A stretch of 64,000 nucleotides of DNA from Eremomyces bilateralis CBS 781.70. Lineage: Eukaryota. A program made the translations under genes and the position numbers. Shown here in pieces: positions 26,620-54,400 of the stretch. Under the pieces are notes generated by a model. It saw nothing but the letters and a program-made list of their open reading frames with translations. It was not told the origin of the DNA and made no database searches. The DNA lies in the NCBI GenBank assembly GCA_010015585.1, contig ML975151.1, one strand, 5' to 3'. Every line of letters begins with the position of its first letter. The stretch's first letter is position 1.

Positions 26620-29600
26620 TTAGTTATTCTTCATCGTCTTCTGTTTCTCCGCATTCTCCACTAACTTCTTCCCTGCAATAAACAACCCCTTCCTCTTCCT
26701 CACCTTCTCTGTATACATCTTCGCCACGTTCTCCCTATCCGCCAACTCTCCCAGATCTTCCAATTGCTCTTCCGTGAACGGCACCCAGAACGGGTCCTGA
26801 TCCAGCATCTCGAACCCATGGAAGACGAGCTGAGGGCTCGCTGCGCCTGAGGTCCGCTTTCGGATCTCCTCGGAGAAGCCGAAGGACTCGGCGACGGGGA
26901 GAACGGCCACGACAGTGAAAAACGGCGTGCCTTCTTTCATGGCCTCGGAGAGGATGCGACCACGACGCCGAGTGATGACGCCATAGACCCGACCAAGGAC
27001 CTCCGCTATGATGGGTTAATCACTATTGTTCAAGAGTGTTGATATAAGACTGTCAACTTACTTGAAGCTTGGATCTCGCAGCTATACATGGCAAGCAACA
27101 TGCGCGGACTCCAGTCCAGGAACCCAGTGCGAATGGAATCCCTGACTGCCTTTATCACTTCACTGGTTAATCGACCAAGTTTGTCACGAGCGCTGGCCGC
27201 TTCATCCATCGAGCTTGAAATGGTGATGTCCTCGAGGAAGACAGCCACGCCTTGCATCGGCTCATTACAGAGCGGCCCCTGAGCTGTTACCAGTTGGAAC
27301 GCGTAGTTGATCTTGTCAGAGAGGTCTTGCGCTGTTAGACCTGCTCTAGAATGTTGGTTTGTGATCGATCCTTCCGAAGCGCCATTTGTCTCGTGTAGTC
27401 TGATGTAAGTTAGCGAATATGTAAGGTAAGGTCGTCGCCGACACTTACACTTTGCTGCATGCGCCGTCCTTCGTCGCGTCGATTAACACGTTCGGACCAA
27501 CTCGCCGTGGACCAAATGCAGCGATCGTGTCAACCACCCCCTTCCATGTGCCATTGTCCTTCTCAGCCACTTCAAAAGCAGACATCAAACGTTTCCTGAG
27601 ATCGTCTCTTGAGCACAGTTCGCCCTGGTCCAAGTCCCCTCCAACTATTAATTCGCTTGTTGAGGCATTTCCAACTCCTTCCCCCACGGGATGCCTCTCG
27701 TCTAAACTCTCGCGCCCCTCTGCCCAGACTTTCCGTATTGACCTCGAGTTCTTGATCAAGCACTCGGTCACATTCTCCGGCAACGGCCTGACCCTCAACC
27801 GGATCGTCACAATGCCGCTAGGCGTCGCTGTAATGACTGTGCCTCGCGGCAGATCTTTCTCCCGAGGGGGATTCATCTCTTTCGCTTCCACAATGCTCTC
27901 CCTATAAGGAACGATCGGTTCTCCGGCCTGGATCTCACATCTCGCGAACCGCTCCCTCAGGTCTTTCAAGCAACGCTCAAGATGCAATTCGCCGGCACAA
28001 CACACCACATGCTCTCCTGACTCCAGAACCTCATATTCAGCACACGGATCCGCCTGTACGAGCAACTTGAGACCAGTGATGAGTTTGTCCAAGTCAGCAG
28101 GGAATACTGGCTCCAGTGCAACCCGAACAATAGGTCGAACGGAGCCAGATATTCCGCCGAGATTGGGGGTCCCGGCCGGTCCGAGGTTTGAAAGCGTGCC
28201 AGCTTTGAGGATATGGCCAGCCAGACCAGCAATCCCCACCACGATTCCTGCTGGCGCTATTTTCAAAGGTTCCAGATGTCGTCCCATAAGAAGATATAGC
28301 CCCGTGATCGTTGCTTTGGTAGGAGGAGCAACGTCCGGTGCATCGGGCATATATTTCGGTCCGTAAGTCCAGACCTCGTCACCAACCGAGAGAGTACCAG
28401 AATAGAGTCGTGCGAATCCAATAAGGTGCTCTGGATCTTCAGGTTCCGCAACACTGTCGTCTTCTGCGCCATTCATATCATTCGCGCCAGTGATAGTGGC
28501 CATTGATAGTGAGTCCGTGACGCCGTCCACCTCAGTGGTTTTAGCAGCAGCGAACTGTGCACGTTTCTTCCTCGCGAGGTCCCGTGCCTCCTCAGCTGTC
28601 AGCATGAATCCACCCCTTTTCTTCTCCTTCGGTAGCTCGCTCTCCTTGACTGCCACCATTTTGCTCACGTACGCAACGAGGGGATCCTCCTTCTTGGAAT
28701 GAAATTCCGTCATGGCGGCCTTGATCTTTGGGTCCACTGCATTGCTTCCGGGACTCGAAGCGACTAAGTCTGGTATCCGTAATGCTTGAGCTGCGGGAGG
28801 GGAGGGGATTTGTTCGATAACGGTGACGAGCACCGCAGTGGAGAGTGGTAGCCAGGCAGCGAAGAGGGCGGTAAGTAATGCGCGTGGGTCGCGGGAACGG
28901 AGGATATGTGGAGGAAGCGTGATATTCAGAGACTTTGTGATCTTTTTCAAAAGTTCCGGATCGCTGTTGGAAGTTAGAAGAAGATAACCACAATGAATCA
29001 TGTATACAACTCACCCCTTGCCATCGTTGCCAGTGACGGTTGCATCGTATACCGCCCAAATGTTCTCAAGAACCAGTTGCACGAACATTGGCTTCAAGGC
29101 ACGACCTTTGAGATGCTTAGAGCTGAGGACTCTCTTGGTCTTTCGATCCAGGAAAAAGTCTCCCCAGAGTACTTTCTCTAAGATTGACCTCTTAATGCCG
29201 AGTTTTTTCTCATATAAACTGGCAAATTGCTTGACAGTAAAAGCCCAGCCGTCAACCGCGCTGCTGAATATGACGTTATTCTTTTCCGGCGCGAAGTAGA
29301 TATCTTCATCGTCCATCTCTACGAAGTCGCCGTCGATGATTTCGCTCGCGTCTGTTCCGCCACTCTTCCCCTTGGCCTTGTCAGCGGCGGCGTTTACTTT
29401 CTGTTCCAATCGCTCCCGCCACCGCAAGTCCTCTTCCATTCGTTCTCCCTGGAAGAAGCCTCCGACTACGGCGTTGACCTGCTCTAGGAGTTTATTGAGG
29501 TGGATGTGTGCTTCGTAAGGGCTCATCTTCAACTCTGTAATGAGCCTATCCATCTTATTGATGACCAAGACGGGCTTCAATTTCTCCGTCCATGTCTGCC

Positions 29601-30138
29601 GGAGGACCGTGACCGTTTGACTACAAACCCCCTCAACTGCATCAACTAACACCATGGCTCCATCGCAGAGACGGGATGCTGTACTGACTTCAGAGCTGAA
29701 ATCGACGTGCCCCGGAGAATCAATGAGGTTGATAAGGTAGTCGTGCTGTTTCGGTTCCGTTTCCGGAGACGACCGGCGCAGCATGGCAAAGTACAATGAG
29801 ATGGCGGAAGATTCCATGGTGATACCACGGAGTTGCTCATCTGGCCGAGAGTCTAGGTAGCGGATCTTTCCTGCGAGTTTGGGAGAGATGATGCCGTTGG
29901 TGGCGATGAGAGCATCTGTGAGGGATGTCTTGCCATGGTCCTTGGATCTTTTGTTAACCTCCTCTTCCTTACTAGAAATCTCTCTGTTCCTGGATGGGAC
30001 TTACGACATGGGCGAGAATGCAAACCTAGATGTTTAGGTTAGTTGGTTCGTGCAGAGGTCGTGGATCGGACGTACATTACGGATGCCGTCTGGAGCACCC
30101 TGAAGCTCTGTGAGCTTCTCAACACCGACTACTGGCAT
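26620..30138 (-). CDS. RIA1: Elongation factor-like GTPase 1 (60S maturation), multi-exon, with a 21-nt exon at 30005-30025
   Basis: [67 protein letters not shown] and [25 protein letters not shown]. Confidence 0.96.
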
Positions 30139-30697
30139 TTCGAAGCCGTGATGTGTGCTGGAATAGGGTGTCCAGCAAGCGGAAGGACGGATGGATGGGG
30201 CAGGTTTACGTATTTGTTCTTATTAACGCACACCAAATTTGCCCTATGATCTAACGGGACGTTTCAATGCACCTGATAACCCTTGATACAAAGCATCGAA
30301 AGTAAAGATATCGGTCGTCGTTTAATTTTATACCGATTGGTAAGGTTTGTGAATCTCGAAACTTTTTTGCTATGACGATGATTCATGATGATACAGATTA
30401 TGTATGTATACCCTTTCGGGGTTAGTTCGGCTTGTTTTATAAATAGAGGCTGGGGCGAAAGGCGAATGGAGTCATATTATGGATAGCACGCGCTCACAGG
30501 TTAGGGTCCTTGCTCCAAACTGGCTTCATAGCCAGCCTTATTCTATCCCGTAGGTACCCTTGATGGGTTCTTTCGAACGTATCCTCCTCGTTCTGCCTCC
30601 ACGTATGTAAGAGTATGGCATAATTCTTGGGAATATCATCCTCGGCCAGGTCTTTCGGACAAGCTAGAATCGCTATTGCTACTGCGATAACAGACAC

Positions 30698-33568
30698 ATG
30701 GCGCACCCGGCAGCCGAAGAGGAGCGGCCGCCAAAGCCCATCAACAGTGGCGTCCGGCTTTCCATCTCCAATCTCTTGAGAGTTCTTGATGGAGTTGCGG
30801 CAGCCACCATACTGACCGAACAAGAAGCAGTGCCTGCCATGGCGTGGGTGCTGGCGCAAAATGAAGTTCCGCAGAACGAACCTGCTGGATCGCAGGGTCA
30901 AATGGGTAACATCATCGACAATGCGTTCCTCTTGAACGAGTGGTTAGACAGAATTGCCTCGAACAATCCTGCTAATGCATCCACTCAGGAAATCGTCAAG
31001 CTGGCTCTTGCTGTTGCATTTCTTCGCCAAAAGTCACGGCTCGAACAAGAAACCACTGGTGAAGAGCTGGAGCAAATTTGGGCCCTGATTCGCGATGCAT
31101 TGTTCAGCACCATATTCTCGCGGCCTGGCTACAGTGCGTCTCGCAGCGCCCAGGGGTTTCTTGCTCTACCTCTTTGCTGCCTGATCAACGAAAACAAAAC
31201 CATCGCCGAGCTATTTCGACTCCACGTTTGGATGCCGGATGGGGTGCGAGGAAATCCTCAGTATTCGATCCATTCTCACCAGCCATACGCACGAAGCTGG
31301 ATCTTGGCTGGGCAAGGAACGGATACCGCCTACACCGTTGAACCCGCGTCGGATCCTTCGGTCGCTACTCACGCAGAATTTGCGCTGAGATGGAAGTCGG
31401 GAGAAGAATTAGGCCAGAGTTACAGCCCGCATCAGCAGTACTCCGTGGTCGAAAACACTGGCAAGCTGGTCTGCGCAATTCCTGGAGAATCAGTGCTGCA
31501 CACGCGCGACATGACATATTCGGTACCAGCAGGCGCGTTTCACACCTCAAATATTCCTTCAGATGAGTTTCATGCCACGCTGTTCTTCTTCGACTCGCAA
31601 CGCAAATTCATAAAGGACGCGCCTGTTCTCGGTCCTATCGATGGCAAGTCGTTTAAGCAAGATCGTAACCCTGCTGGCGTAACTCCGATAGATCTCGTCA
31701 AGACGGTAGACGCATTTCGCGCCTGGGAAGAGCTCATTCAACGAGGGCAGGACTATGCACAATGCGCCGAGTGGGAGTATGCTCTTCGCGAGTTCAACAA
31801 GGCTCTCGATATGTGCAGCGTCCCAGACTTTCCAGCGTCTAAAACGTACCGACTTTCCACCCTTCTCGAGTTTGGCAACACAAATCGTCGTTTTGGGCGT
31901 TACGAGTTGGCTAAGAAGAGCCTGCAAATGGTTGTGGATGAATCGGGTACCAGTGTACTGCGCATCAATGCCAGCGGAGAGCTCGGTGTCATCTATCGAC
32001 ATATGAATCTTCTAGACGATGCAAAGGAAGTGATTGGGCTTCAGCTCAAGACGGCCAAGGAACTCAACTCTGATACCGAAATATGCCGTGCACTGGGGAA
32101 TCTTGGTATGATCAACTACCAGCTGTCGCAACAAAGGGGCGACATGGAGTTATTGGACATGGCCATCAGTCAGCTCAAGGAGCGAGTTAGCACTGCCCGC
32201 AAGATAAAGGAGAGTACAGAAGCGTATTCGCTCGACGGACACATCGAATCGCGCTTGGTCAAGTATGCCATTACGCGAGAGTCTATCGGCCTCGCCCGAC
32301 TCTCCCTATGCTACACAGCTCGTGACGAGCTCGCCAAGGCTGCGGAATTTGCCTTACAGTCGCTGAATATTGCAGCAACGCTCGATGACCCTACCGTGAT
32401 TGCCATGTCACGGTTCTTCTATGGACGCGTTCTGCTTAGGAATGGGCAGCGCGAAGAAGCGCTCAAGCAATTCAACACGCCAGGCACCTGCACTCCTGCC
32501 ATTGCACTGTGCAAAGAGCCTTCAGAAGAGCACGGCCAATATCTGCGAGAGCTGGTGGATGTAGGCGCGGATATGGATCTCACGGACGAACAAGGCTACA
32601 AGGCACTGGATTGCGCCGTGTACAACAACGACACGTCGGTGGTCGACATTGTCCTCGACGGTCTCCGTAAGCAACTCCACGGTGACGTGCCCGGTAAACT
32701 GAAGCAAAGTATGAACGAGGCAAGGCTCAGAAAAAATTATCGCGAAATCTTTCAAGACAGGCTGCGGCCCGTTCTCAACCACAGCAACGCCCAAGATCGC
32801 TTACGGCGCCTGCGGAGGGCGTATGCGGAAATTCTCGCGGATGACGTGGAAAGGAGGAGAATGTTTGATGGCCTCAAGTTTGTGCGCTATTCCCACTTTG
32901 AGCGCTCCAAGCGAATCCCACGATCTAGCGACAAGGTGACCTACGAATGGAGCGCGGAATTTGACCGGAGTCACCCTGGTGCGCGCGTTGACTTTGTTAT
33001 ATTCCTCTCGTATCGGTGGATTGGGAAGGAATCTGGACTAGGCTCTCAGCCGGATGACCAGGACAACACGCAATATCGGCGCATGATTTCTGCCATCGAG
33101 GAGTTTTTGACGAGGCGTCCGGATGTGGATCGGAACACTTTGGGAATCTGGGTGGTAGGCCTATTGCCCATCTGTTCTCCTCGTCATTTCGCTTTCTAAC
33201 TAACACTTCAACAGGATCTTGCGTGTATCGATCAAGACCATGCGGCATCAGGCATCTCGGCACTTCCCATGGTTCTTATGCAATGCAATGTCGTAATCAG
33301 TCTTGTTGATGGCAGTTATTACTCACGAGCTTGGTGCTGCGTCGAGGTGCTGATGATCCAGACGCTGATTAAATCCTACGGCTTGCACCGGTGGTACGAG
33401 CAGGTTCACCCAGACGGATCCAATCAAATACCCGAGGATAATACGAGGTGGATTTTACGTGAGGCATCGCTCGATAGGAAGATCGTTGTGGCCGAGAAGG
33501 ACGTTTCATTTGCCGAAGATAGGCCTAAACTAATGTTTTTAGAACGACAGACGAAGATGCTTGGATAG
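30698..33568 (+). CDS. Multidomain cupin-TPR-ankyrin-HET(TIR-like) protein, ~936 aa; intron 33155-33214
   Basis: Cupin motifs RLHVW..IHSHQ..RSWILAG..PAGAFH. TPR-like helices (ASGELGVIYRHMN, RALGNLGMINYQL). Ankyrin-like DEQGYKALDCAVYNND. HET-like FLSYRW..IWVDLACIDQD..YYSRAWCCVE. Start codon uncertain (30698, 30839 or 30902). Confidence 0.85.
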
Positions 33569-34622
33569 GGAGATGAGAGGATACCTGTTATGATCCTCTA
33601 TCTGACCCGATCTCTCTCCTCGAGAGGATCAAGGGCCGGCATGGAGTGAATGGATCTGCAGGATCCCCAGGAATCCTGATGGCCCCGAATCAACCATCAC
33701 TGTCTGGGTTCAATGAACTGTGAAAGGCACGAGGAGAAGGGTCGGTCCGACGTGTTGCTAGGGGGAAGTATATGGATAGAGATAGGCGACGCGGCGATAG
33801 AGGCGGGCAAGGTTGAGTCAATTGGGCATCGAGATCAACAGGGGAAGAGGAGGGTATCTTTGTGGTAGCGAAAAACCAGAGGAAGCTATTGCGAGCTCTT
33901 TCAGGCCAAGTCGAATATAAAGCCATAGCTATCTCGGCTGTAGGGGTACTTGGTATGGATAGGAAACGGGGAATGTACTGTACCGTATTGAATTTTGAAC
34001 TGTCTCGAACTAGGTGTCAAAGCTATGATTCGGGACTTCCCCTTCTGTAGCATCTCCCCTTCTCTTCAAATCTACGGTCCTCATATCATTAGTAGATTAT
34101 AATCCAACCGATTGCGAAGAGACTTGACTGGTTGTTTTGAAGTTTCAGTGACAGTTTCAATACGCAGTGCTGGGAAAACCTCGGAGATCCCCACCAAGTC
34201 TCTCTCTGCCATGGTCCGGTTTGAAACAACAACCAGGACCACTCCCCATCAGCCTTATGAATGATCAATATCGCAAGTAGTGATCTTGCATTTCGACCTG
34301 GTAGTCAATCCCCGCATCCTACTCGTGCTATGGGCGACATCAACCTGATGGTGGCGGATTGGTGTTGACCAACAAAACGCGTCCCTTCGCGTCTGTTTCT
34401 CCTCGCGTCATCCATCTCGTCTCCTTCAGCCGTCCAGCGGTTAGCTCATGCGCCGTCCACAGAGACTCCACACTAGGGGTGTTGCACTTTATTCACGATT
34501 TCGCATCTCCTTGTGAGGCCACTATTCCACTTAACACCTAGCACCCTGATCGCTCCACCTCTTTTCTCTTGCGGTCATCGATCCAAAGCGTTGCGAACAG
34601 GGCTATCAACCACCAGCCTGCC

Positions 34623-35784
34623 ATGGATATGGACCTCGATTCTGCTCAGGGAGCTCCCCCTCTCACCGAGCCTCAACATAGTACTAGCCCGACGACTAGC
34701 CCACACGATCAGACCATGGACATGGACGACACCATGCAGACCATTACGGCATCAAGCATGCAGCAAGCGGCGGCGGCAGCGGCAGGACAGGAATTCCAGA
34801 CCGATTACAGCAACGGCAACTCCCATGATCCCAGACCGCAAACATCGTACTCGGATACCGCATACCGCCCCTACGATGCTCATAGCCAATATAATACCTC
34901 CGAAAACGACACTCCCCCAAGACCGGGCTACCATAGCCAACACAGCTACTCTCGTGGCGGCTCCCGACCCAGCTCGTTGGCGGGGTCCGGCAATCACTCT
35001 CCGTACGACATGGCCAACCGACAGGCGGGATACCAGGAACAGCAGATGCGGGCACAGCAACCGGAGTCAGCGGCGAAGAACACGAGCGTGGTGATCAAGG
35101 TCGGCATGGTGGGGGATGCACAGATTGGAAAGACGAGTCTGATGGTGAAATATGTTGAGGGCAGCTGGGACGAGGACTACATCCAGACGCTTGGTATGCG
35201 AGGCTACTCGCCATTGAGACCCTTCATGGACCTATACTAACGTAGCTCAAGGTGTTAATTTCATGGAAAAGACCATCTCGATCCGCAACACCGAAATCAC
35301 TTTCTCCATCTGGGACCTTGGTGGCCAGCGCGAATTCGTCAACATGCTCCCGCTCGTCTGCAACGACGCTGTTGCGATCCTCTTCATGTTCGACCTGACT
35401 CGGAAGAGCACCCTCAACTCCATCAAGGAGTGGTACCGACAAGGTCGAGGGTTCAACAAGACAGCCATTCCATTCCTCGTCGGAACCAAGTATGACCACT
35501 TTGTCAACTTTCCTCGCGAAGAGCAGGAGGAGATCTCGAACCAGGTATGGACGTGTCTTAAAAGAATTCATCAAGGCGAGTGAGGTACATGGCTGACAAT
35601 CCCGCAGGCCAAACGATTCGCAAAAGCAATGAAAGCGCCCCTCATATTCAGCAGTACCAGCCACAGCATCAACGTGCAGAAGATCTTCAAGATCGTCCTG
35701 TCGAAGGCGTTCGACCTACGCTGCACAATACCGGAGATCGAGAACGTGGGCGAGCCGCTGCTGCTGTACCAATCGGTGGGTTGA
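34623..35784 (+). CDS. TEM1: Septation/mitotic exit network small GTPase Spg1/Tem1 (introns 35194-35251, 35545-35607)
   Basis: [48 protein letters not shown] and [23 protein letters not shown]. Confidence 0.95.
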
Positions 35785-46173: not shown

Positions 46174-49100
46174 TCAAACACTGACCGTCCTTCGCTTCAC
46201 CACCATCGGCTTCTGCGCATAGCAGATCAACAGCCTAAAATTCGTTCCCCTACGCTCACACTCTCGCAGCAATGTCCGGTCATCCCAGATGCTCTGCCCC
46301 GTCTCTTTATCCGACGATGTTGCACCGCTCTCGTAGCATTGCGTATACCACCATCTTCCAACTCTCGCAACCATTTTGGTGATGTTTGCGTCGCCACCAT
46401 CCGAGGCGTCTGACTCGACACTCTGCTCGTCCGCTTTGGCTTTCCCCTTGCTCCCACCGCTGCTACCTTCCGCATCGCCTTCTTCGCCACTGCCACTTTC
46501 ATCCATGCTGCGCGTGATCGGCCCTGAGATAGGGACGCCGACCACACACCGCTGCAGGCCTTCGAACCCCCTCCTCCCGACGCACCGCATCAAGTTGTCG
46601 GCCACGGGTTTCAAGCTCACCCCCGGTTGCGCAAACTGCATGCGTTCCTTGAGGCTGCGGACGGCGCGACGGGCGCGATTACCCATGTTCAGGAGGTCGA
46701 GGTCCAGGGCGAAGACCTCGAGGTAGCCGCCGGGCCGGAGGACGCGCTTGCACTCGGAGAGGGTGGCGCTGTAAGCAGAGTCGGGGACGGCCTGTGGGAA
46801 GCGGAAGACGGCGCAGGCGAAAAAGCCGCGGGGGAAGGGAAATGGGGCGTTGGGGTACGGGTGATGGATATGGCGATGGTTTGTGGGAGATTGTCCGGCT
46901 GGGTTAGAGGACGTTGGGGAGGCGATGGTGGGGTCGGGACCAAGGCTGTAGATGGTGGCGTTTGGATAAGTGAGGGCGGCGTAGTACGACCAATCTAAGG
47001 GAATGTTAGGGGACACTTGCTAAATAAAAGTCGGGGTGAGGCTTACCCTTTCCAAGCCCATCCAATATCAGGACGCGGTTCTCACTGCGCTCCTGCACTT
47101 CATAATGTGCCGGACTGAACAACACTCGTCCAAAAGACAGCCACTTGCTCGTCATGAGCGCGCCGAACCGCAGATTCCCCATCGATCCCGTCTCTTCCTG
47201 GTCCTGTTGGGCAATTGCAATCGGTCGACTGTCGCGGTCTTTGGTTGAGGGAAGTTGGGATTTGGGATCGGTGTGACGTGGCTGTGAAGGTGATGAGAAG
47301 TGCGAAAGCTCGGAGCCTTGAGAATCCCGCGATAGTAGTGGGCTTTGTTCAGCTGTTTTAAGGTCCCTCAATCCTCTGACAAGACTTCCGACGCGGATGC
47401 TGCCAACTTCTGAGACCGAAGGGCGATCCTCGACTTCCAAACTCTGCTTCGTACCGGAACTGAATCTTCCGTGAGAAGGAGAGCCAAAGCTTGATTGAGT
47501 GTTCCTGTCACCGTATGCATTAAGGAAATCTGTGATAGACAGCGGACTATTCGGCGTAGTAACCGAAAGCCTTGGGATGTCTTCGAGTTGGTCAACTGAA
47601 GGCAACTGAATATGAGGTGGACGCAGTTGTGGAAGTGGTGGAGGTTGTAGATGCTGATGATGCGGAACAGTTATCATGAGGCCGTTGCTGGCGGCTTGGG
47701 CATTTTGAATGGACGTCGGACCAAGCTGTTGATGCCGGATAGCGCTCCCAGGATGCTGTGACATGCCGGCACCGCCCATTACCAAGCCATTAGTAGGATT
47801 ATTAGTCGCCAGATAATGATGGTGGAACGGAGCTCCTAGGCTAGACCCCGTGCCAGGTGTACGCGGCGTGCGGGGGGTAACGACATCGTCAATGAAGTCG
47901 TTGTACTCGTTCCAGACCTCATCTTCAGTCACCGGTGCTCCCCTAGGCGGTATCAAAGCGATTGGAATTGGAATGGCTCCAGTAGTAGAATTGCTCGTTG
48001 TAGAGGCCTCGGAATTTTGTCGAATGGCGAGTCGCAAAAATTCCTGCCCATCGCCGAAAGGAATCCCGTGTCGTGACATTTCCGACATATTTACTTCTTG
48101 TTGTGCTGAAGCAATACCCGGTTCGGAATTGAAGGCTTGTGGATGTGTAGGCGGGAGAGTATTCCCATATCGCACATCCGTGAACGCTAGGGAGCCCTGA
48201 TATTGTTGTCCAAACATACCAGCTCCAAGAGGTCCATCCACTGTAGCCATCTGCTGGAGTGGTGGCGACATGCCCGGCCTTGGTACGTTTGGGACAAATG
48301 GCCGAGAAAAGGAATGCGTCGATGGGGCAATCTCCCTATCCCGTTTCGAGACGACTTGTGGGATTCGGCCAACCTGAGGCAGACGGCTCCGATGGGGTGG
48401 CTGAGGATGAATCTGCAGTTGCCGAGCGTCGCCCGTCTGCCAATGCTCGCCCCCTTCATTATCCGGGCCTTGCATAGGGCTAATTGAAGTCCTCGACTTG
48501 TCAATATACGCTATAGGCCCAACAAGTGGGCTCACATCAGCGGCCCTAGCAAGATTGGAAGGGTTGACGGGAGATTGTTCCTTGCGCAAAAACACCTTAG
48601 GACTAGCAGGTCTTTGAAGCATGCCGTTTTGAAGATCCGAAGGCAGTGAAGGAGGCGGCGGTAATAGCATAGATTGCTTGTATGCGGCTTTATCGTTGGG
48701 TTTCTGCAATCGCTCATTGTCGTCCTGGATTGGCGAGACCAGCGAGTGCGCCCAAATTTCGGCTCCGATCTCTTTCTCTTTGGCATCCTCATCGCATCCA
48801 ATATCAGCTTCGCGCAGGATGTTCTCCAACTCGGCCATATCGATGCGGTCCGGTGCAGACGGATCTGACATAGCATAGTGCGCTACGGTCCTATTGATTG
48901 CGTACTTGGTCGGAGCTACTCCTGTCTCCCCACTGGATGCCATACTCGGAGTGGAGGTTGACCCATCTCTTCGAGGGGAAGCAGCTGCTGCTGCAGAGGC
49001 ACCCATCGTTCTTTGAAAGAAATTCCACTTTTTTGCCGGCTTTTGCGGTTGCAGATGGGATGACTGCGAAGCCTGCGATTGTGCATCGCTGCCCTTGCGG

Positions 49101-51496
49101 CGGAACCAGTTTCGACTGGCGGTGCTGTCGTTACTGTCTGCGCGAGAGGTTGCGCTTCCCAAGGCAGGTTCTGGACTACGTATAGAAGCAGCGACATTGA
49201 GGGGTGTTGGAGCTGGCGTGTTAGAGTCAGGGGTGAGTTGGGATCTCCTCGAGATTCTTCGCGATGCCAAAGTACTCAGTCCATTCGCGAGATATGTACG
49301 TCTCTTAACCGGCTCTGTCATCTGCTGATGCCCGTGTTCCATAGGCGAGGGTAGCAAAGTCAGCTTCCCGCGGATCGGCTTCCGTTGCTCAGTCATCGAC
49401 TCTTGACTGCTAGCACTGCCTTTCCTGTCAACCACCTCTGCGACTCCTTGGCCTCTCAAGGTGACAGGCGCAATCCTTGAACTAAGAAAGTCATCAATTT
49501 CTTGCTCATTATCCACACTACTCTTCCGCGATGACCGACTGCCTGCACTTCCGCTTCGTCCCCCGCTTGCTGCACTGTTGGTCCCGCTTGTAGTACTTCC
49601 ACTTCGGCCTCTGGTCGAAGCTGAATGTCCGTACCGGCCGTAGCCTTCGTGGCCGGTACCCGCCGCAGGACCCTTTCGGAGTTTCTTGTCCTTCCCGGTC
49701 AGATTCTCCATTGGCGTTGCAGGATGTGTAGAGGCAGTGGTTACAGCAGGTTCCGTCTTTCGCCGGAAGAAACCGAAACGCGGCTTGGGACTGGCACCCG
49801 TAGAAGACCCAGCGCTTGGGCGTCGTAATTTGGTGGGAGGCGGCTGCTCACTCTCGCTCAGGTCTGGTGTCTTCAGCCCACTAGTAGAGATATATGAAGG
49901 CGATAGCACCGACACTTTCGAAGAGTTGCTGGGGCTTGGCGACGGATTGCGAGAGGACGTCCTACTAGCGAAGCCGAACCTTGTCCGAGGAGTATTGTTG
50001 AGGGCTGCAGGTGGAGGTCCTGTTGACTGTGATCGAGAATCACTAGAGGATTTCCTGCGGTGAGTTTGGGAAGGAAGATGTGTTAGGTTGCTTTGAATGA
50101 CTGGAGAGGCTTCTCGAAGGGATGACATATCAGGCGTTCCATCCCTACTTGGTCGTATGGGCTTGGAGCCAGCTTTGAGCGGAGATGACGCATTTGGGTG
50201 CTCAGAGACCGCGGGCGGATTCCCCAAATGCGCAAATTCGGGGGGGTTTAATGGTGCGGTCTTATTGAAAGGCGGCTGAGGCGATCTCCTTGGACTTATT
50301 GTCGAATTGACGGTCTGAATATACTCTGGGGCAGTCTTGGCACGAGTGACGACTGGTGGAATAGATGGCTTCTGGAGCGGTGGGCTTGGAGGGGGAGTGG
50401 ATAGTCTTCGTGTCGCTTTCTGGTCCTGCATTCTGGTGGGTTCAGGAGCTCGAATGGTGGACGATGAGCTTGTTGACTCTCTGACAGATGACAACCCATC
50501 ATCGTCGTCCGCAGTACCCTTTCGTCGAGTTATTGGTGGGCGACTTTTTGGGCTCTTTTTCCGGTCCGGTCGAGTATTTGGAATGACGGAGAGGCCCGGA
50601 GCGGCGGCAAGAACTCCTGGCGAGTAAGACGATATCGACGTCGGTGTCGAACTGATGCTAAAGACCCCGGGCGACTCAGAATACCGCGTCGAGGGGCTAC
50701 CGTTGCCAAGAGTAAAATGTAGCGTTGGAGGCGGCAAATTATCGGTCCTTAAAGGAGTTGGATCAGTGGCACCGGAGTAGAAAGGGCTGCTTCCTGCATC
50801 ATGTGGACTCGGCATGGCTGGAGACATGTGGGAGAGCACAGATGTGGAAGTAGGCATGGTGATCCCAAGAACAGAGTCCTGGAACGGGTCGATGAAGCCA
50901 CCGATGGGCTTTCCAAGCCGGCTTTCATCATGGGAAGATGTGGACCCGGATCGATTTCGATTTCCGGGGCGCCCGATTGATGATGCTTTTCTTCGGATGT
51001 GGTTGGAGTTGGGGCTGTCTTGGGTCGATGCCGATGAACCAGAGACCAAAGATGGAGTCCGCGTTGGCTCAAACCGAGTCCGAGGCGCGGCATGAGCCAG
51101 CGGAATCTCCCTCCATGAGTTGGAATCTGGCTGTCGATAACGAGGCGACATAGCTGGAGGATAGGTCGAACTTTTCGTCGGTGGGATCATTTTCGATGGA
51201 GCTGCGTTTATAGCTGGTTTCGACGATGGTCCAGGATTGGAGGAGGGTATCGTTCGCTCAGTCTTTCCATTATTGTCGTCCGATTTCTTTAATTTCCGTT
51301 TCGACAACTTCGACGAAGTCAACGAAGATGGGGTCGGGATACTCGATGGTTGCTTGGAGCTACTGCTCGAGCTAGGACCGCTTTTCGAGGGTGGTATTCG
51401 TGTGGATGGAGCACGCTTCGAATTAGGATTAACCGTCCCGGCGAGCAACTGCTCCGGCCGTCTGGGAACGCCGGTGTGTGATCTATACGATGCCAT
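46174..51496 (-). CDS. Large Ser/Pro-rich protein (~1750 aa) with C-terminal type-11 methyltransferase-like domain; intron 46995-47046
   Basis: The 1496-aa and 280-aa ORFs are joined by a GT-AG intron. Motifs KGPAAGTGHEGYGRY, NLRFGALMTSKWLSFGRVLFSPAH and ECKRVLRPGGYLE. Confidence 0.88.
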
Positions 51497-54400
51497 TTCG
51501 GGATCCTGCTCCGTGTGACTGTAGAGGTCGCATCTATTGCTAGCCTATTGAAGGCGGTGGGACGCGAAGTAGGATCGTTTGCTTCCGAAGTGCTTCATGA
51601 AGTCCGCTCCGAAGGTTCTGGTATTCCCATACTCTGGTTGTGGGTGATACAGTCAGCTGCTGTGCTCCGGACGAAGGCACAAGGAACGAGAAGAAGGATA
51701 CCAGATTGAACCACAAACTGAGCTCGGACTAGGCAGAACAAACACTCAAAGAATTCGCAGGAAGTATTTCACTAGCCTTCCATGAGCTGAGCCCAATATC
51801 CAGCGCCTGAAGTACGAAGGACAATGAGGAGGTGGCGTCTTTAGGCGGCAAAGAGAAGAGACTTTTGAAAGGGCAGGCAAACCAGTGCCTTTAGAAAATA
51901 AGACGACGTACACTGATCAACTACTTCCACTCAAGTTTCCAGCTCTTTTGCCTTGCGGGGATATTATCTTATTTGAAGTTGTCAAAGTTCGTATGATGTG
52001 CTGCGCCACCGGGGCCACCGAGACCGTTGACGCAGTCGTCCACTCGGTTCGCAAGGCTGCTACGACGTGACTCGCCAAATGCGCGTCCACGTTGCGATTA
52101 AACCTAGAAATTCATGCAAACGGATCCTCGCTGCGCAGGTACAATCCTGTCAAGAGAGGGAAAGATCAGGATATCGATGGAGCCGCAGGCGAGTCCGAAT
52201 GTTTTGTACGACTCTCACCAAAGGTACCCCCGCCGTTCCCGCGAGGCCCGAAGCGCGTGGGGCAGAGTGTCTTTCGAAGCGCCGGGATCAATTCAACGTT
52301 GTTCAGGGTACTTCCGAAGATCGAAGTACTAAGAGGCTTGCCACCCTTGCTGTCAGACAGCTTCGTTTGTGTCCGTTCTGCGTTCGTAAGTATATACAAC
52401 CGGAATATGGTGTGTCAACAAAAGAATGAAGAGAGAGCGGGAGAGGCGAAGAGGTGAGAAGCAGGATGCATATGAGTGATCTTCATCAGGCATATTGCCA
52501 GTCTGCGCCTTAGGTATCCCCTCCTGAGGGAATTCGCTCCTCCCTCCTACTCCTCTCAAGTCTCAACAAATGTGTCTCCTCGCGTCTAATCCCTTCAAGA
52601 CCAGTCCCTTGTCGTGGAGCCATGTTGACGGCGTCGCGGGGAGGTTAGAACGCCTCCTTGGAACCACTTTTGACAGGTATCTGGATCCCGCAATGGGCAA
52701 AGCATGCATCATCGAGGCTCAATAGGCACCATGACGGGACGAGACCTGGATTCGGCTCAGCCGGCTGAGGAAAAACTAAAGCCGCGTCCTCCATTCTCAG
52801 GCCAGAAGCGGCGCCAATCCCGCATAGAGCTGGAAGGGTCTTCTCAACTGTGTGGGAGAGAGATTGCTCAACCACGCTGAATGGTCAGTAGGGACAAGTG
52901 GTTGAGCCAGTAAGACGGTGACTTTGGCTATTCAGAAGTCGATTCGCAGCCGCAGTCAAACGAATTGGCCAAAGCTTTGGGCTTACCCCGGTCTTTTCGG
53001 GGCGCTCCTTTTACCAACGTCTTTTGCGAGGGCCGCCAACAGGCCAGAGGTTAGCGTGGGATGGTGGATTATTGGTGGTGTCTGGGTCAACCCCGCAGTC
53101 TTTCTCGAAAAGTGATGTTGAAGACTGTATGGTGGATGGAGGATGTACATCTTGGAGCCTCGTCTATTAGCGGGGATGACTTGCCTACTGCATTCTCTGC
53201 TGATTTGGTCAAAGGAGTGTTAAACGGGAACCGCTAGAGTACACAAGCCGATTATCGTGCTCCAGCTTCCACCGACTCGCATTGTGAGCACTCTGAGAAG
53301 GCTCATGGACCCATCAATCGCTTAAAGCACACTTGTTAGTGCCCTTGGAGCCCTATGGTCAAGAACGAATGGTGTCCAGTATGCTTGAAGGAAGCATGGC
53401 AATGGTCAGAAACACCATCCACATGACTTTGTCGTCTGCCGTCTGTGCTGTAATCCAGTTGGAGTGACCTGAAGGATCTTCTGTCCTGCACAAATTGTCT
53501 GTGGGTAGTGATTGTCCGAGATTTTCCATCCTGATGGCTTTCAGCAGCCATTGTTTACGAGATGGGTTGCTGAGTGATACAATTACTTTGGTTGCTCTTG
53601 GACAAGCCCATTGTGGTATGGTATCAAACAAGGCACGCTTAACCTTGTCTTGTGCATCATCGGGTTGGTGCCAGAGAGTATTTTGATATCCGATGGTGGA
53701 CAGCTTTCGACTCTAAATCACACACGTACAGCCAGGTCACATTGTGCGCATATCCACCTTTGATATACGAACCCGACTCGAGAACATAGGACATGTTTCT
53801 ACCATCATCGTGCTACCTTGAAGTGGCGGGTTTTAATGGGTAACGCCAACAGGAACATTCTGGGGGCGCCTCAGCTGGTGGCCTGGTGCTCCTGATGGGT
53901 CCACAGACCAGCGGACCGTTCCTGATATCAACCAAAGTCTCACAATGGGGCCGGGTCGGAAGGCGGAGCGTCTCGTAGCGTCTTTAAATCCGACCAAATT
54001 GTGCCCATCACGATGATTTCAACCGATACGTCCGTATAGGTAGTAGGTCGACTCCAAGGATGAAGATAGGCGTAACCCGAGTGGGCAATAAACCCCTCTC
54101 CAGGTCTCCAACTCGCCACGATGTCTTACTGCGGGGCCAACCAGCATTGTGTATTAAACACAAGGTCATTCAACGTCCGTATCCCACGTACCAGTATGTG
54201 CAAGGAGACCAAACATGTGGGCTCGCGGCCTGTCGCGCTCTCACATTATTGCTGACGCTCCACGTTTCATAGTTGGTGTAACTCGTAAGGAACCGCATTC
54301 GATATACGAAGGATTATGCAACACAACCCCAGGGCCCAGTTGTCATCAGTGTGACAGTGTCCCTGGAATACGCTGGTTGCTAGGAGTCGTGCCGGATCAT

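Follow-up and report, generated by a model that had tools for sequence, protein, structure and literature searches.

A conserved and expressed fungal gene joining a cupin-like domain, TPR and ankyrin repeats and a divergent HET/TIR-like domain: a candidate sensor-effector lacking an NTPase

The window, a stretch of 64,000 nucleotides from contig ML975151.1 of Eremomyces bilateralis CBS 781.70, carries a two-exon gene whose predicted product of 936 amino acids runs from an N-terminal helical subdomain and a cupin-type beta barrel through TPR and ankyrin repeats and a helical linker to a HET/TIR-like domain (Table 1). It lies, as an earlier note made on this DNA had claimed, between an EFL1/RIA1-like GTPase gene (27445-30000, minus strand) and a Ras-family, TEM1-like gene (approximately 34947-35583, plus strand), and its surroundings are those of housekeeping genes.

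Table 1. Features of the cupin-TPR-ankyrin-HET/TIR-like gene, with positions counted along the window
Feature	Position	Strand	Details
5' untranslated leader	30584..30697	+	Transcript contig starts at 30584, the first covered base, not a mapped start site
Exon 1	30698..33154	+	Codons 1-819; ATG at 30698
N-terminal helical subdomain	30755..31105	+	aa 20-136; AF2 model
Cupin-type beta barrel	31160..31663	+	aa 155-322; SAQGF, RLHVW, IHSHQ, PAGAFH; AF2, Foldseek, VIA
His192-Ser-His194, cupin motif 1 histidines, candidate metal ligands	31271..31279	+	
His282, cupin motif 2 (PAGAFH), candidate third metal ligand	31541..31543	+	
TPR region	31727..32476	+	aa 344-593; Pfam TPR_2, TPR_12
Ankyrin repeats	32486..32659	+	aa 597-654; Pfam Ank_4, Ank_2; DARPin matches
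Helical linker	32660..32992	+	aa 655-765
HET/TIR-like domain, first half	32993..33154	+	aa 766-819; FLSYRW, PDD, IWV
Intron	33155..33214	+	60 nt, GT..AG, ctaac branch site, in-frame TAA
Exon 2	33215..33568	+	117 codons plus stop; HET/TIR-like second half, aa 820-936 (DLACIDQD, RAWCCVE, FLERQ)
Glu863, candidate catalytic glutamate	33344..33346	+	Glu of YYSRAWCCVE in the window protein

The open frame of the first exon extends from 30668 to 33199 and the same frame runs on from 33200. A contig of 6764 nt from the public run X1, which is labelled RNA by guess only but whose contig is without the 60-nt intron, showed 0 differences to the window over 30584-33153; from it the GT..AG intron is precisely absent, and the match resumes at 33214 and extends beyond 33900. 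This contig matches both exons with the intron removed and therefore the cupin and HET parts are on one spliced transcript contig. The intron position is kept across the family, where the gene calls of homologs show either read-through or exon 2 only. The prediction of one spliced open reading frame of about 936 amino acids thus agrees with the intron-less contig, and the case named as speaking against it, that the cupin and HET parts are separate transcripts, is not what was found, a single contig spanning the whole gene. This fungal cupin-TPR-ankyrin-HET/TIR-like gene is real and is expressed. In its 5' leader region there are two tiny upstream ORFs.

The first 140 residues are poorly conserved (mean 27% identity), and the domain behind them was modelled by AF2 with a pLDDT of 91.7 and a pTM of 0.88. 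Foldseek matched this model to 36 PDB entries at E ≤ 1e-3, nearly all of them cupins and led by mercaptosuccinate, 3-mercaptopropionate, cysteine and cysteamine dioxygenases (probability 1.0), while VIA aligned 161 residues to 8vni at Z 9.5 and, in a second look, reached Z of at least 8 for 115 chains. Cupins carry their metal ligands in two motifs, HxH in motif 1 and PxGxxH in motif 2. Of the corresponding histidines, H194 and H282 do not vary across 105 sequences, in which H192 is at least 90% conserved, and all three are invariant in 10 bacterial or metagenome relatives; H176, W178 and Q195 are invariant as well, and the sequence of motif 1 has no acidic ligand. The models and alignments point to an N-terminus that adopts a cupin fold with a conserved three-histidine set, much as the earlier note had read it from the motifs, and the domain probably binds metal.

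By sequence this domain stands apart. No Pfam cupin family matched it (Cupin_2 was subthreshold, with a best E of 0.006, in 2 of 20 relatives), no Pfam family covers the N-terminal domain of the window protein, and neither CDO_I (PF05995) nor PCO_ADO (PF07847) matched it or the 20 relatives. A comparison of the cupin-like domain with thiol dioxygenases in the Atlas gave 0.76, a lead only, and the family profile searched against PDB sequences returned no thiol dioxygenase and one unrelated match at E 0.42. Used as the sole query, the cupin-like domain gathered 249 representative clusters, and it is a family of its own, new here, that would merit a Pfam entry.

Behind the barrel, Pfam placed TPR_2 at residues 344-372, TPR_12 at 534-593 and Ank_4 at 614-650, which fits the ranges proposed for these repeats (TPR at approximately 31720-32480 and ankyrin at approximately 32530-32670). 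The final part of the linker packs against the C-terminal domain in the predicted model of a homolog. No Walker A motif was found in the 936-residue product and no NACHT, NB-ARC or other NTPase domain was matched by Pfam in the window protein, in line with the suggestion that it has no P-loop NTPase. Pfam matches, AF2 models and conservation taken together uphold the four-module architecture of cupin, TPR, ankyrin and C-terminal HET-type domain, for which no published description was found in the literature.

The C-terminal domain was harder to place. Four of eight full-length homologs scored 14.3-18.1 bits with the Pfam HET family (PF06985), below its gathering cutoff of 22.5 bits, and one further homolog (P0281) exceeded that cutoff at 24.3 bits; neither of the two pieces into which the intron splits the domain of the window protein matched. 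Among predicted structures in the Atlas, residues 760-951 of a homolog had HET clusters as neighbours at TM 0.60-0.63 by query, with PF06985 on 98-100% of the members of three of these clusters, both sides of the comparison being predicted structures. The AF2 model of a homolog's C-terminal domain (pLDDT 91.8) had TIR domains as 9 of its 10 best Foldseek rows, the best TIR match reaching E 3.8e-3 at a probability of 0.97-0.99 and no row a lower E. The best VIA rows were catalytic TIRs (AbTir at Z 7.2, with an rmsd of 2.9 over 94 residues, and the MapSPARTA TIR with NAD+ at Z 7.0) and TIR entries made up 29 of the 50 VIA matches listed, while in an unbiased VIA search SpbK scored Z 5.8 and no chain reached Z 8. 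Nucleoside deoxyribosyltransferases and fucosyltransferases scored just behind the TIRs in the fold searches.

The glutamate of the RAWCxVE motif (E163 of alignment A2) is invariant in 55 of 55 sequences, as are the RAWC motif itself and some 30 other positions. In the homolog model it sits on a helix (158-174) after the third strand (145-149), a placement made by position along the chain and not by residue-level superposition, and it lies four residues past a tryptophan, a spacing shared with the invariant SWxxxEL of bacterial TIR_2 domains. Sequence comparison gave no link to TIRs: Pfam TIR families (PF13676 and PF01582) matched neither the window protein nor 8 homologs, hhalign of the fungal domain against the bacterial TIR_2 profile gave non-significant probabilities of 0.5% and 0.3%, and the HET-like family profile met no TIR among PDB sequences, its sole matches there being hippocalcin and growth hormone, at E above 0.2. 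The sole local hhalign alignment pairs both tryptophans and both glutamates, which is a hint only. No stand-alone HET-like proteins were found, the shorter matches being mostly exon-2 pieces of about 107 residues and gene calls from this same family that are cut short. We would therefore describe the domain as a divergent HET-type and TIR-like one whose best match, a weak one, is to catalytic TIRs. Of the original HET/TIR-like assignment, the HET scores in homologs, the invariant glutamate and the TIR-led fold matches speak for it, but it found no match to TIRs at the sequence level, and the structural check that had been proposed came out clear for the cupin and TIR-led with middling scores for the C-terminal domain.

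The cupin-like domain also occurs in bacteria. In 5 of 25 distant clusters scanned, TIR_2 lay above the Pfam cutoff and N-terminal to the cupin-like domain, and one such TIR_2-cupin protein is encoded in a Chitinophagaceae genome. Among the six loci with enough downstream DNA to judge, a gene recognised by PADLOC as a 2TM effector (E 7e-19 to 1e-14) directly followed the TIR_2-cupin gene at four and was absent at two. In a Lentzea relative a glutamine replaces the TIR glutamate. A scan of 22 further cupin-like relatives for other effectors gave TPR, one HET match or nothing, and the bacterial alignment A3, used as a protein query, returned 2 proteins only. No report of a cupin on TIR or Thoeris proteins was found in the literature, although the Thoeris preprint may list such TIR proteins in its supplementary tables, which lay outside this search. 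Its repeated association with TIR domains lends independent comparative support to the idea of a functional coupling of cupin and TIR-like domains in the fungal protein. The coupling that the earlier note had supposed thereby gains from the same family being fused to bona fide TIR_2 domains beside 2TM/SLATT genes in bacteria, while the rest of its interpretation is partly supported.

We propose that the fungal protein may be a single-chain, non-NLR sensor-effector with a cupin sensor, a repeat scaffold and a HET/TIR-like, NAD-processing output, a reading that we regard as evenly balanced between right and wrong. The three-histidine, putatively metal-binding cupin, nearest in fold to thiol dioxygenases, would be the sensing or regulatory unit, and the TPR and ankyrin repeats would form a conserved scaffold that holds the off state or mediates assembly. 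Upon activation the HET/TIR-like domain would self-associate and Glu863 would then cleave or rearrange NAD+, giving NAD+ depletion or an ADP-ribose-derived signal, and the cell might die or mount a stress or immune response. The binding of metal, the sensing of a ligand, the NAD chemistry, the gating and the biological role are all put forward here conditionally. The gene is expressed and the same cupin is fused to true TIRs in anti-phage-like operons, which makes the protein a good candidate for an immune or cell-death switch under the control of a small molecule.

How the family is conserved bears on this reading. The homolog search returned 234 sequences at E ≤ 1e-3 (best 4.6e-274, at 97-98% coverage), which speaks against a chance arrangement; full-length identities were 42-55% in Ascomycota, Basidiomycota and Mucoromycota alike, and the matches listed include Neurospora, Sordaria or Podospora relatives. 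Starting with the cupin barrel, the folded modules had mean identities of 42-61%, and the cupin, TPR, ankyrin and HET-like modules of 50-61%, so that the repeats are conserved as strongly as the enzyme-like domains. In a FastTree phylogeny of the family the clades follow taxonomy at the order level. The conserved repeats, the taxonomy-following tree and the housekeeping neighbours make the family appear unlike typical fungal immune receptors, and the description of the gene as accessory-looking in the earlier note does not hold up against conservation in three phyla, constraint on all modules and such neighbours.

These same features would suit a housekeeping or regulatory enzyme with no part in immunity. 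Its cupin would then work as a dioxygenase dependent on oxygen or thiols, whose substrate would be a metabolite or, in the manner of ADO/PCO, a protein N-terminus held out by the TPR/ankyrin scaffold, and the flavodoxin-like C-terminal domain would process nucleosides or nucleotides or have a regulatory role. Conservation over the full length in three fungal phyla, similar constraint on all folded modules from the barrel onward, order-level clades, the housekeeping neighbourhood, the existence of a transcript contig, the thiol dioxygenases at the head of the cupin fold matches and the nucleoside 2-deoxyribosyltransferases, which score no more than about 1-2 Z units below the TIRs, are all compatible with such an enzyme. 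We nevertheless think it unlikely, as the bacterial fusions of the same cupin to TIR_2 beside 2TM/SLATT genes have a defence-type layout, the C-terminal domain is of the HET type that is known to trigger cell death (PMC10197012), and the distribution among the listed fungi looks patchy, with several copies on one Pisolithus contig.

The sensor-effector reading supposes a catalytic output, and it is decidedly less probable that the HET/TIR-like domain has no catalytic activity and serves in assembly or as an adaptor, as the TIRs of animal receptors do, recruiting other HET/TIR proteins while the cupin and repeats give binding specificity only. The TIRs of MyD88, MAL and the IL-1R family were among the fold matches (Z 5-5.9), and the table of PMC12881547 holds no HET domain with known enzymatic activity; however, the 55 sequences show no variation at the glutamate, in the RAWC motif or at some 30 further positions, and the top-scoring fold matches were catalytic TIRs bound to NAD analogues. 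Allorecognition by a polymorphic het gene, with death upon fusion of unlike strains, is very improbable, for although HET domains are common in het genes (PMC10197012), this family is strongly conserved, repeats included, and few HET genes act in this way (5 of 125 in Podospora anserina, PMC10197012).

Returning to the sensor-effector reading, a bolder form of it, which we consider doubtful, would make the cupin-like module an ancient, cross-kingdom sensor partner of TIR-type enzymes and the fungal protein a single-chain counterpart of ThsB. The three-histidine centre would sense its target or oxidise it, be it a thiol, some other small molecule or the N-terminus of a protein, upon which the HET/TIR-like domain would make an ADP-ribose-derived signal such as cADPR, and fungal SLATT-family membrane proteins might read that signal. 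No SLATT domain was found in 80 window ORFs scanned, of 90 ORFs of at least 130 aa (the other 10 lie within 27448-35715). If true, this would for the first time open the switching-on of a HET domain to study at the level of its ligand, HET domains being among the most abundant cell-death modules of fungi, and the cupin-like domain could be proposed as the sensor of a class of ThsB proteins. The family itself is that of a conserved, expressed, NTPase-free HET/TIR-like protein with a compact, putative metal-binding sensor, and this shared sensor domain would tie a fungal HET protein to a bacterial layout resembling type VII Thoeris. There are clear candidate residues in H192, H194 and H282 and in E863, and therefore both ends of the protein are open to point mutants.

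Compared with known systems, the window protein shares some features with each and differs from all. Its best cupin fold matches, including the helices ahead of the barrel, are thiol dioxygenases, with which it has three histidines at the cupin motif positions in common, but it has an extra N-terminal helical subdomain and no sequence match to CDO_I or PCO_ADO. Unlike the NLR/STAND receptors it is without a central P-loop NTPase. SARM1, which is also not an NLR, consists of ARM repeats, a SAM domain and a C-terminal TIR NADase, and in it the N-terminal module binds a small metabolite and a change of ligand frees the TIR NADase from the off state imposed by helical repeats. The C-terminal fold matches of the window family included TIR structures of SARM1 (Z 5.0-5.3), but there is no sequence relationship, the putative sensor is a cupin and not an ARM module, and there is no SAM domain for oligomerisation.

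With the fungal HET proteins (PF06985; the HET-E/D/R NLRs, TOL, PIN-C and HET-6) the window protein shares the HET-type sequence blocks of its C-terminus. HET domains are regarded as TIR-related and sufficient for cell death (PMC10197012, PMC12881547), they are known as cell-death triggers frequent in het genes, of which allorecognition accounts for only a small fraction (PMC10197012), and a table in PMC12881547 lists none with a determined biochemical activity or structure. In contrast to these proteins, the HET-like domain here is C-terminal, lacks a NACHT or NB-ARC partner and stands behind a cupin, TPR and ankyrin repeats, and conservation in the family is far above that of typical HET genes, with most scanned members below the Pfam HET cutoff.

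Type VII Thoeris is a pair of TIR and SLATT proteins, of which the TIR protein both detects the phage and produces cADPR (10.64898/2025.12.03.692087). The bacterial TIR_2-cupin genes, followed by a 2TM/SLATT gene at 4 of 6 loci, resemble its ThsB (TIR) and ThsH (SLATT), and the accessible part of that preprint mentions no cupin-like domain on ThsB (10.64898/2025.12.03.692087). The fungal protein differs in having a HET-like and not a TIR_2 domain, a reversed domain order and inserted TPR and ankyrin repeats, and it is a single gene as opposed to a two-gene TIR and SLATT/2TM operon. It is not a member of type VII Thoeris, but it may work in a ThsB-like manner.

A cupin family that is recurrently paired with TIR-type domains, in two domain orders and in two domains of life, contributes the N-terminal part of the window protein, in which four modules with conserved candidate metal and catalytic residues are encoded on one transcript contig, confirming the fusion gene observed in the earlier note. 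The open frame, beginning at 30668, reaches a TAA at 33197-33199, and the same frame resumes at 33200; the start ATG at 30698 is in good context, and the intron opens with a GT at 33155 and closes with an AG whose last base is 33214, a ctaac branch site lying between them, with a spliced product of 936 aa that agrees with the length of about 936 aa first proposed. Homolog alignments run unbroken over the exon junction (IWV/DLACIDQD versus IWI/DHACINQE, the slash marking the junction) and several prokaryote-style gene calls of homologs from metagenomes either extend through this intron or terminate at it, and therefore the intron position is conserved. One 6764-nt contig from a public sequencing run (labelled RNA by guess) has 0 differences over 30584-33153, skips exactly the 60-nt GT..AG and goes on from 33214 past 33900; it was taken as a transcript because the intron is missing, as expected of a transcript, an assembled contig not being equal to one molecule. 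The refuting result named in the earlier note, a cupin part and a HET part transcribed separately, was not seen, this one intron-free contig spanning both. Two tiny upstream ORFs inside the 114-nt leader that it covers may lower the translation of the main ORF. The contig also extends ~3.5 kb beyond 33900, 3' of 33569-33900, where it probably passes through the same-strand neighbouring Ras-family (TEM1-like) gene, which may reflect read-through or the merging of neighbouring transcripts during assembly.

Features of the gene, its product and the bacterial cupin-family loci
Feature	Location	Strand	Detail
Exon 1	window 30698-33154	+	819 codons
Intron	window 33155-33214	+	60 nt, GT..AG
Exon 2	window 33215-33568	+	117 codons
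Upstream ORFs	window 30604-30624	+	ATG TAA; ATG GCA TAA
Longest unbroken ORF in window	window 47009-51544	-	1512 aa; no Pfam family at E<=1e-5
TPR_2	aa 344-372		Pfam
TPR_12	aa 534-593		Pfam E 2.4e-9
Ank_4	aa 614-650		Pfam E 1.1e-4
2TM effector	L001		E 7e-19
2TM effector	L002		E 1.1e-14
2TM effector	L004		E 3.7e-14
2TM effector	L005		E 2.3e-16
PLD-like nuclease	L001 2432-4156	+	two-domain
Cupin-family relative	L002 5608-6681	+	Actinomycetota MAG
TIR-like/cupin gene	L003 5221-6573	+	Lentzea
WD40 protein	L003 6586-10380	-	1264 aa, 13 repeats

Pfam gave no match in residues 1-340 of the window protein. An AF2 model of residues 1-345 from 105 sequences (pLDDT 91.7, pTM 0.88) predicts helices over residues 23-136, then a beta sandwich (155-322) and a closing helix (330-344), and Foldseek against the PDB returned 36 matches at E<=1e-3, headed by thiol dioxygenases (mercaptosuccinate dioxygenase 8vni, E 2e-5; Pseudomonas thiol, cysteine and 3-mercaptopropionate dioxygenases; Bacillus cysteine dioxygenase; human cysteamine dioxygenase) with other cupins next. 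VIA structural comparison gave Z 9.5 for 8vni (rmsd 3.9, 161 residues, model 95-316), Z 9.2 for 4qm9 (140 residues) and Z 8-9 for small generic cupins; as modelled, the fold is a cupin and its leaning toward thiol dioxygenases over other cupins is modest. Cupins carry two motifs which hold the metal ligands, and H192-x-H194 and P-x-G-x-x-H282 stand at these places as candidate ligands. Positions invariant in the 105 sequences include H176, W178, H194, Q195 and H282, while H192, H225, H268 and H292 reach 90% conservation or more, and with no acidic ligand after the HxH the site would resemble that of three-histidine dioxygenases. The cupin with HSH and a distal His that had been read from the sequence is thus upheld by the predicted fold and by the conservation of H192, H194 and H282.

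When residues 95-345 alone were searched against 1.84 billion representatives, 249 proteins were found at E<=1e-3, 180 of them at E<=1e-10. Pfam TIR_2 was over cutoff, N-terminal of the cupin-like domain, in 5 of 25 distant matches scanned (P0297, P0300, P0307, P0313 and P0323, matching the window cupin-like domain at E 1e-24 to 2e-16), and the RLHxW, HSHQ and FH histidines were invariant in an alignment of ten bacterial-type relatives (of the TIR_2-fusion type). Scanning prokaryote genomes located P0313 in a Chitinophagaceae MAG (L001) and relatives in an Actinomycetota MAG (L002) and a Lentzea genome (L003), and a metagenome scan gave six further short loci. The PADLOC "2TM effector" (PDLC00712) is encoded immediately downstream of the cupin-bearing gene in 4 of the 6 judgeable loci (leaving out L006 and L008, which end too soon, and L007, which has a fungal-type TPR protein) and was not found by PADLOC at L003 and L009; the L001 effector also has subthreshold Pfam SLATT matches. 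At the N-terminus of the Lentzea protein is a degenerate TIR-like region (hhalign probability 81%) in which Gln replaces the catalytic Glu, and the gene of this protein is tail to tail with that of the WD40 protein.

Three further observations were made on these relatives. The L001 PLD-like nuclease, with DrmC-type PADLOC matches, is encoded ~1.8 kb upstream of the TIR-cupin gene, which fits a defence-island setting. The L002 relative, next to its 2TM effector gene, begins mid TIR-like region without the first strand and FCDLxDDP block, and may be truncated or an assembly error. P0318, a 2301-aa representative with no Pfam match, has 19 separate stretches matching residues 174-220 of the window protein and is apparently either a tandemly repeated cupin fragment or the product of faulty assembly.

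Pfam TPR_12 and TPR_2 mark the TPR region and Ank_4 the ankyrin region, as the earlier note had it, designed ankyrin proteins among the PDB search matches backing the latter; a Pfam scan and motif search found no NACHT, NB-ARC or Walker A, agreeing with its statement that there is no P-loop NTPase. The window protein's own two HET-like pieces have no Pfam match because the intron splits the domain. Pfam HET was subthreshold in 4 of 8 full-length homologs (14.3-18.1 bits, cutoff 22.5) and over cutoff, at 24.3 bits, in P0281, a further homolog with the same architecture. As a stand-in, residues 711-951 of homolog P0013 (51% identical overall) were modelled from 55 sequences (pLDDT 91.8, pTM 0.89), and the predicted strands and helices alternate in the order expected of a flavodoxin-like TIR fold. 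Foldseek gave no match to this model at E<=1e-3; TIR domains (RUN1, RPS4, RPP1, RPPT, SNC1, L6) filled 9 of the first 10 rows with probability 0.91-0.99. An unbiased search of 48,161 chains, with none at Z>=8, placed the SpbK TIR first (Z 5.8), then TIRs, nucleoside deoxyribosyltransferases and LOG-type proteins, and VIA gave Z 7.2 for AbTir with bound NAD analogue (rmsd 2.9, 94 residues) and Z 7.0 for the NAD-bound SPARTA TIR, TIR entries making up 29 among the 50 rows listed by our count. Atlas structural neighbours include HET-bearing clusters (TM 0.60-0.63), and the nearest by features is a "putative HET domain" cluster (0.94). Thirty positions are invariant in the 55 sequences (including FxSY, PD, DxxC, QC, RAWCxxE and FLERQ), of which the window protein retains 28, Glu863 among them; the Glu of RAWCxxE is placed by the P0013 model on the helix following the third strand, 4 residues past the Trp, the same spacing as in the invariant SWxxxEL of bacterial TIR_2 domains. 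Since profile comparisons with bacterial TIR_2 domains were not significant (probability 0.5% and 0.3%) despite the likeness in predicted fold, we classed the domain as HET-type and TIR-like and did not place it in the TIR family; of the HET/TIR domain originally proposed, the HET type is supported by homolog Pfam scores and predicted structure, the TIR likeness is suggested by middling fold scores, and sequence comparison gave no support for TIR membership. In passages of fungal immunity reviews HET is distantly related to TIR and sufficient for cell death, usually N-terminal on NLRs or the sole recognisable domain, with activity and structure not determined (PMC10197012, PMC12881547).

A search with exon 1 found 234 proteins at E<=1e-3; the 120 of these that were listed are 42-58% identical, mostly with 88-100% exon 1 coverage (71-85% in 8 rows). 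Named sources include Onygenales, Aspergillus, Sordariales, Xylariales, Hypocreales, lichen-forming fungi, Basidiomycota (Pisolithus, Astraeus, Trametes) and Mucoromycota (Umbelopsis), and the proteins are annotated "hypothetical", "TPR repeat protein 28" or "HET domain-containing". Across 64 homologs of 890-1010 aa, identity to the window protein averaged 0.27 for the N-terminal helices, 0.54 for the cupin, 0.50 for the TPR, 0.61 for the ankyrin, 0.42 for the linker and 0.55 for the HET-like module (60 rows); the repeats are under constraint equal to that of the enzyme-like ends, whereas fungal NLR repeats are hypervariable. A FastTree tree of 65 rows recovered Onygenales, Aspergillus, Basidiomycota and Mucoromycota as one clade each with full local support, with short deep branches lacking resolution and the window protein as a long branch without a close relative among these rows. 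The rest of the genes in the window have housekeeping roles (RhoGAP, DIM1, Las1, EFL1, a Ras-family GTPase, EBP2 and others), and with the conserved family and constrained modules this means that the description "accessory-looking" is not supported. Such strong conservation and gene setting also favour the main rival explanation, that the window protein is a conserved metabolic or regulatory enzyme, but the same cupin-like domain occurs in a bacterial defence-type context, which speaks against it. Separately, P0032 and P0048 share one 2,240,105-bp contig of Pisolithus thermaeus, which makes them local paralogs, and P0094 (772 aa, 46% identity, 3.7-kb contig), labelled Candidatus Bathyarchaeota, seems to be fungal DNA that ended up in the bin of an archaeal MAG.

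The interpretation as a non-NLR sensor with a TIR-like effector, which rests on computation, is largely reasonable, and to it are added here support from a transcript contig, predicted folds that back both end domains, conservation of the gene and a tie between the sensor domain and bacterial TIR and 2TM operons. The cupin may bind metal and a small ligand, or oxidise the ligand; the TPR/ankyrin scaffold would pass this signal to the HET/TIR-like domain, which would then assemble with Glu863 acting on NAD+. SARM1, whose C-terminal TIR NADase is gated by a helical-repeat module that binds a ligand, may be the closest functional analogy to the proposed gating. Our literature search found no paper on a cupin-TPR-ankyrin-HET protein, nor on a cupin on TIR/Thoeris proteins. 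In a December 2025 preprint, whose consulted passages make no mention of a cupin-like domain on the TIR protein, type VII Thoeris is described as a TIR gene adjoining a SLATT effector, the TIR protein sensing phage and producing canonical cADPR which activates the membrane effector (10.64898/2025.12.03.692087). The bacterial cupin-family loci, in 4 of the 6 judged, share this layout of a TIR gene with a 2TM/SLATT gene.
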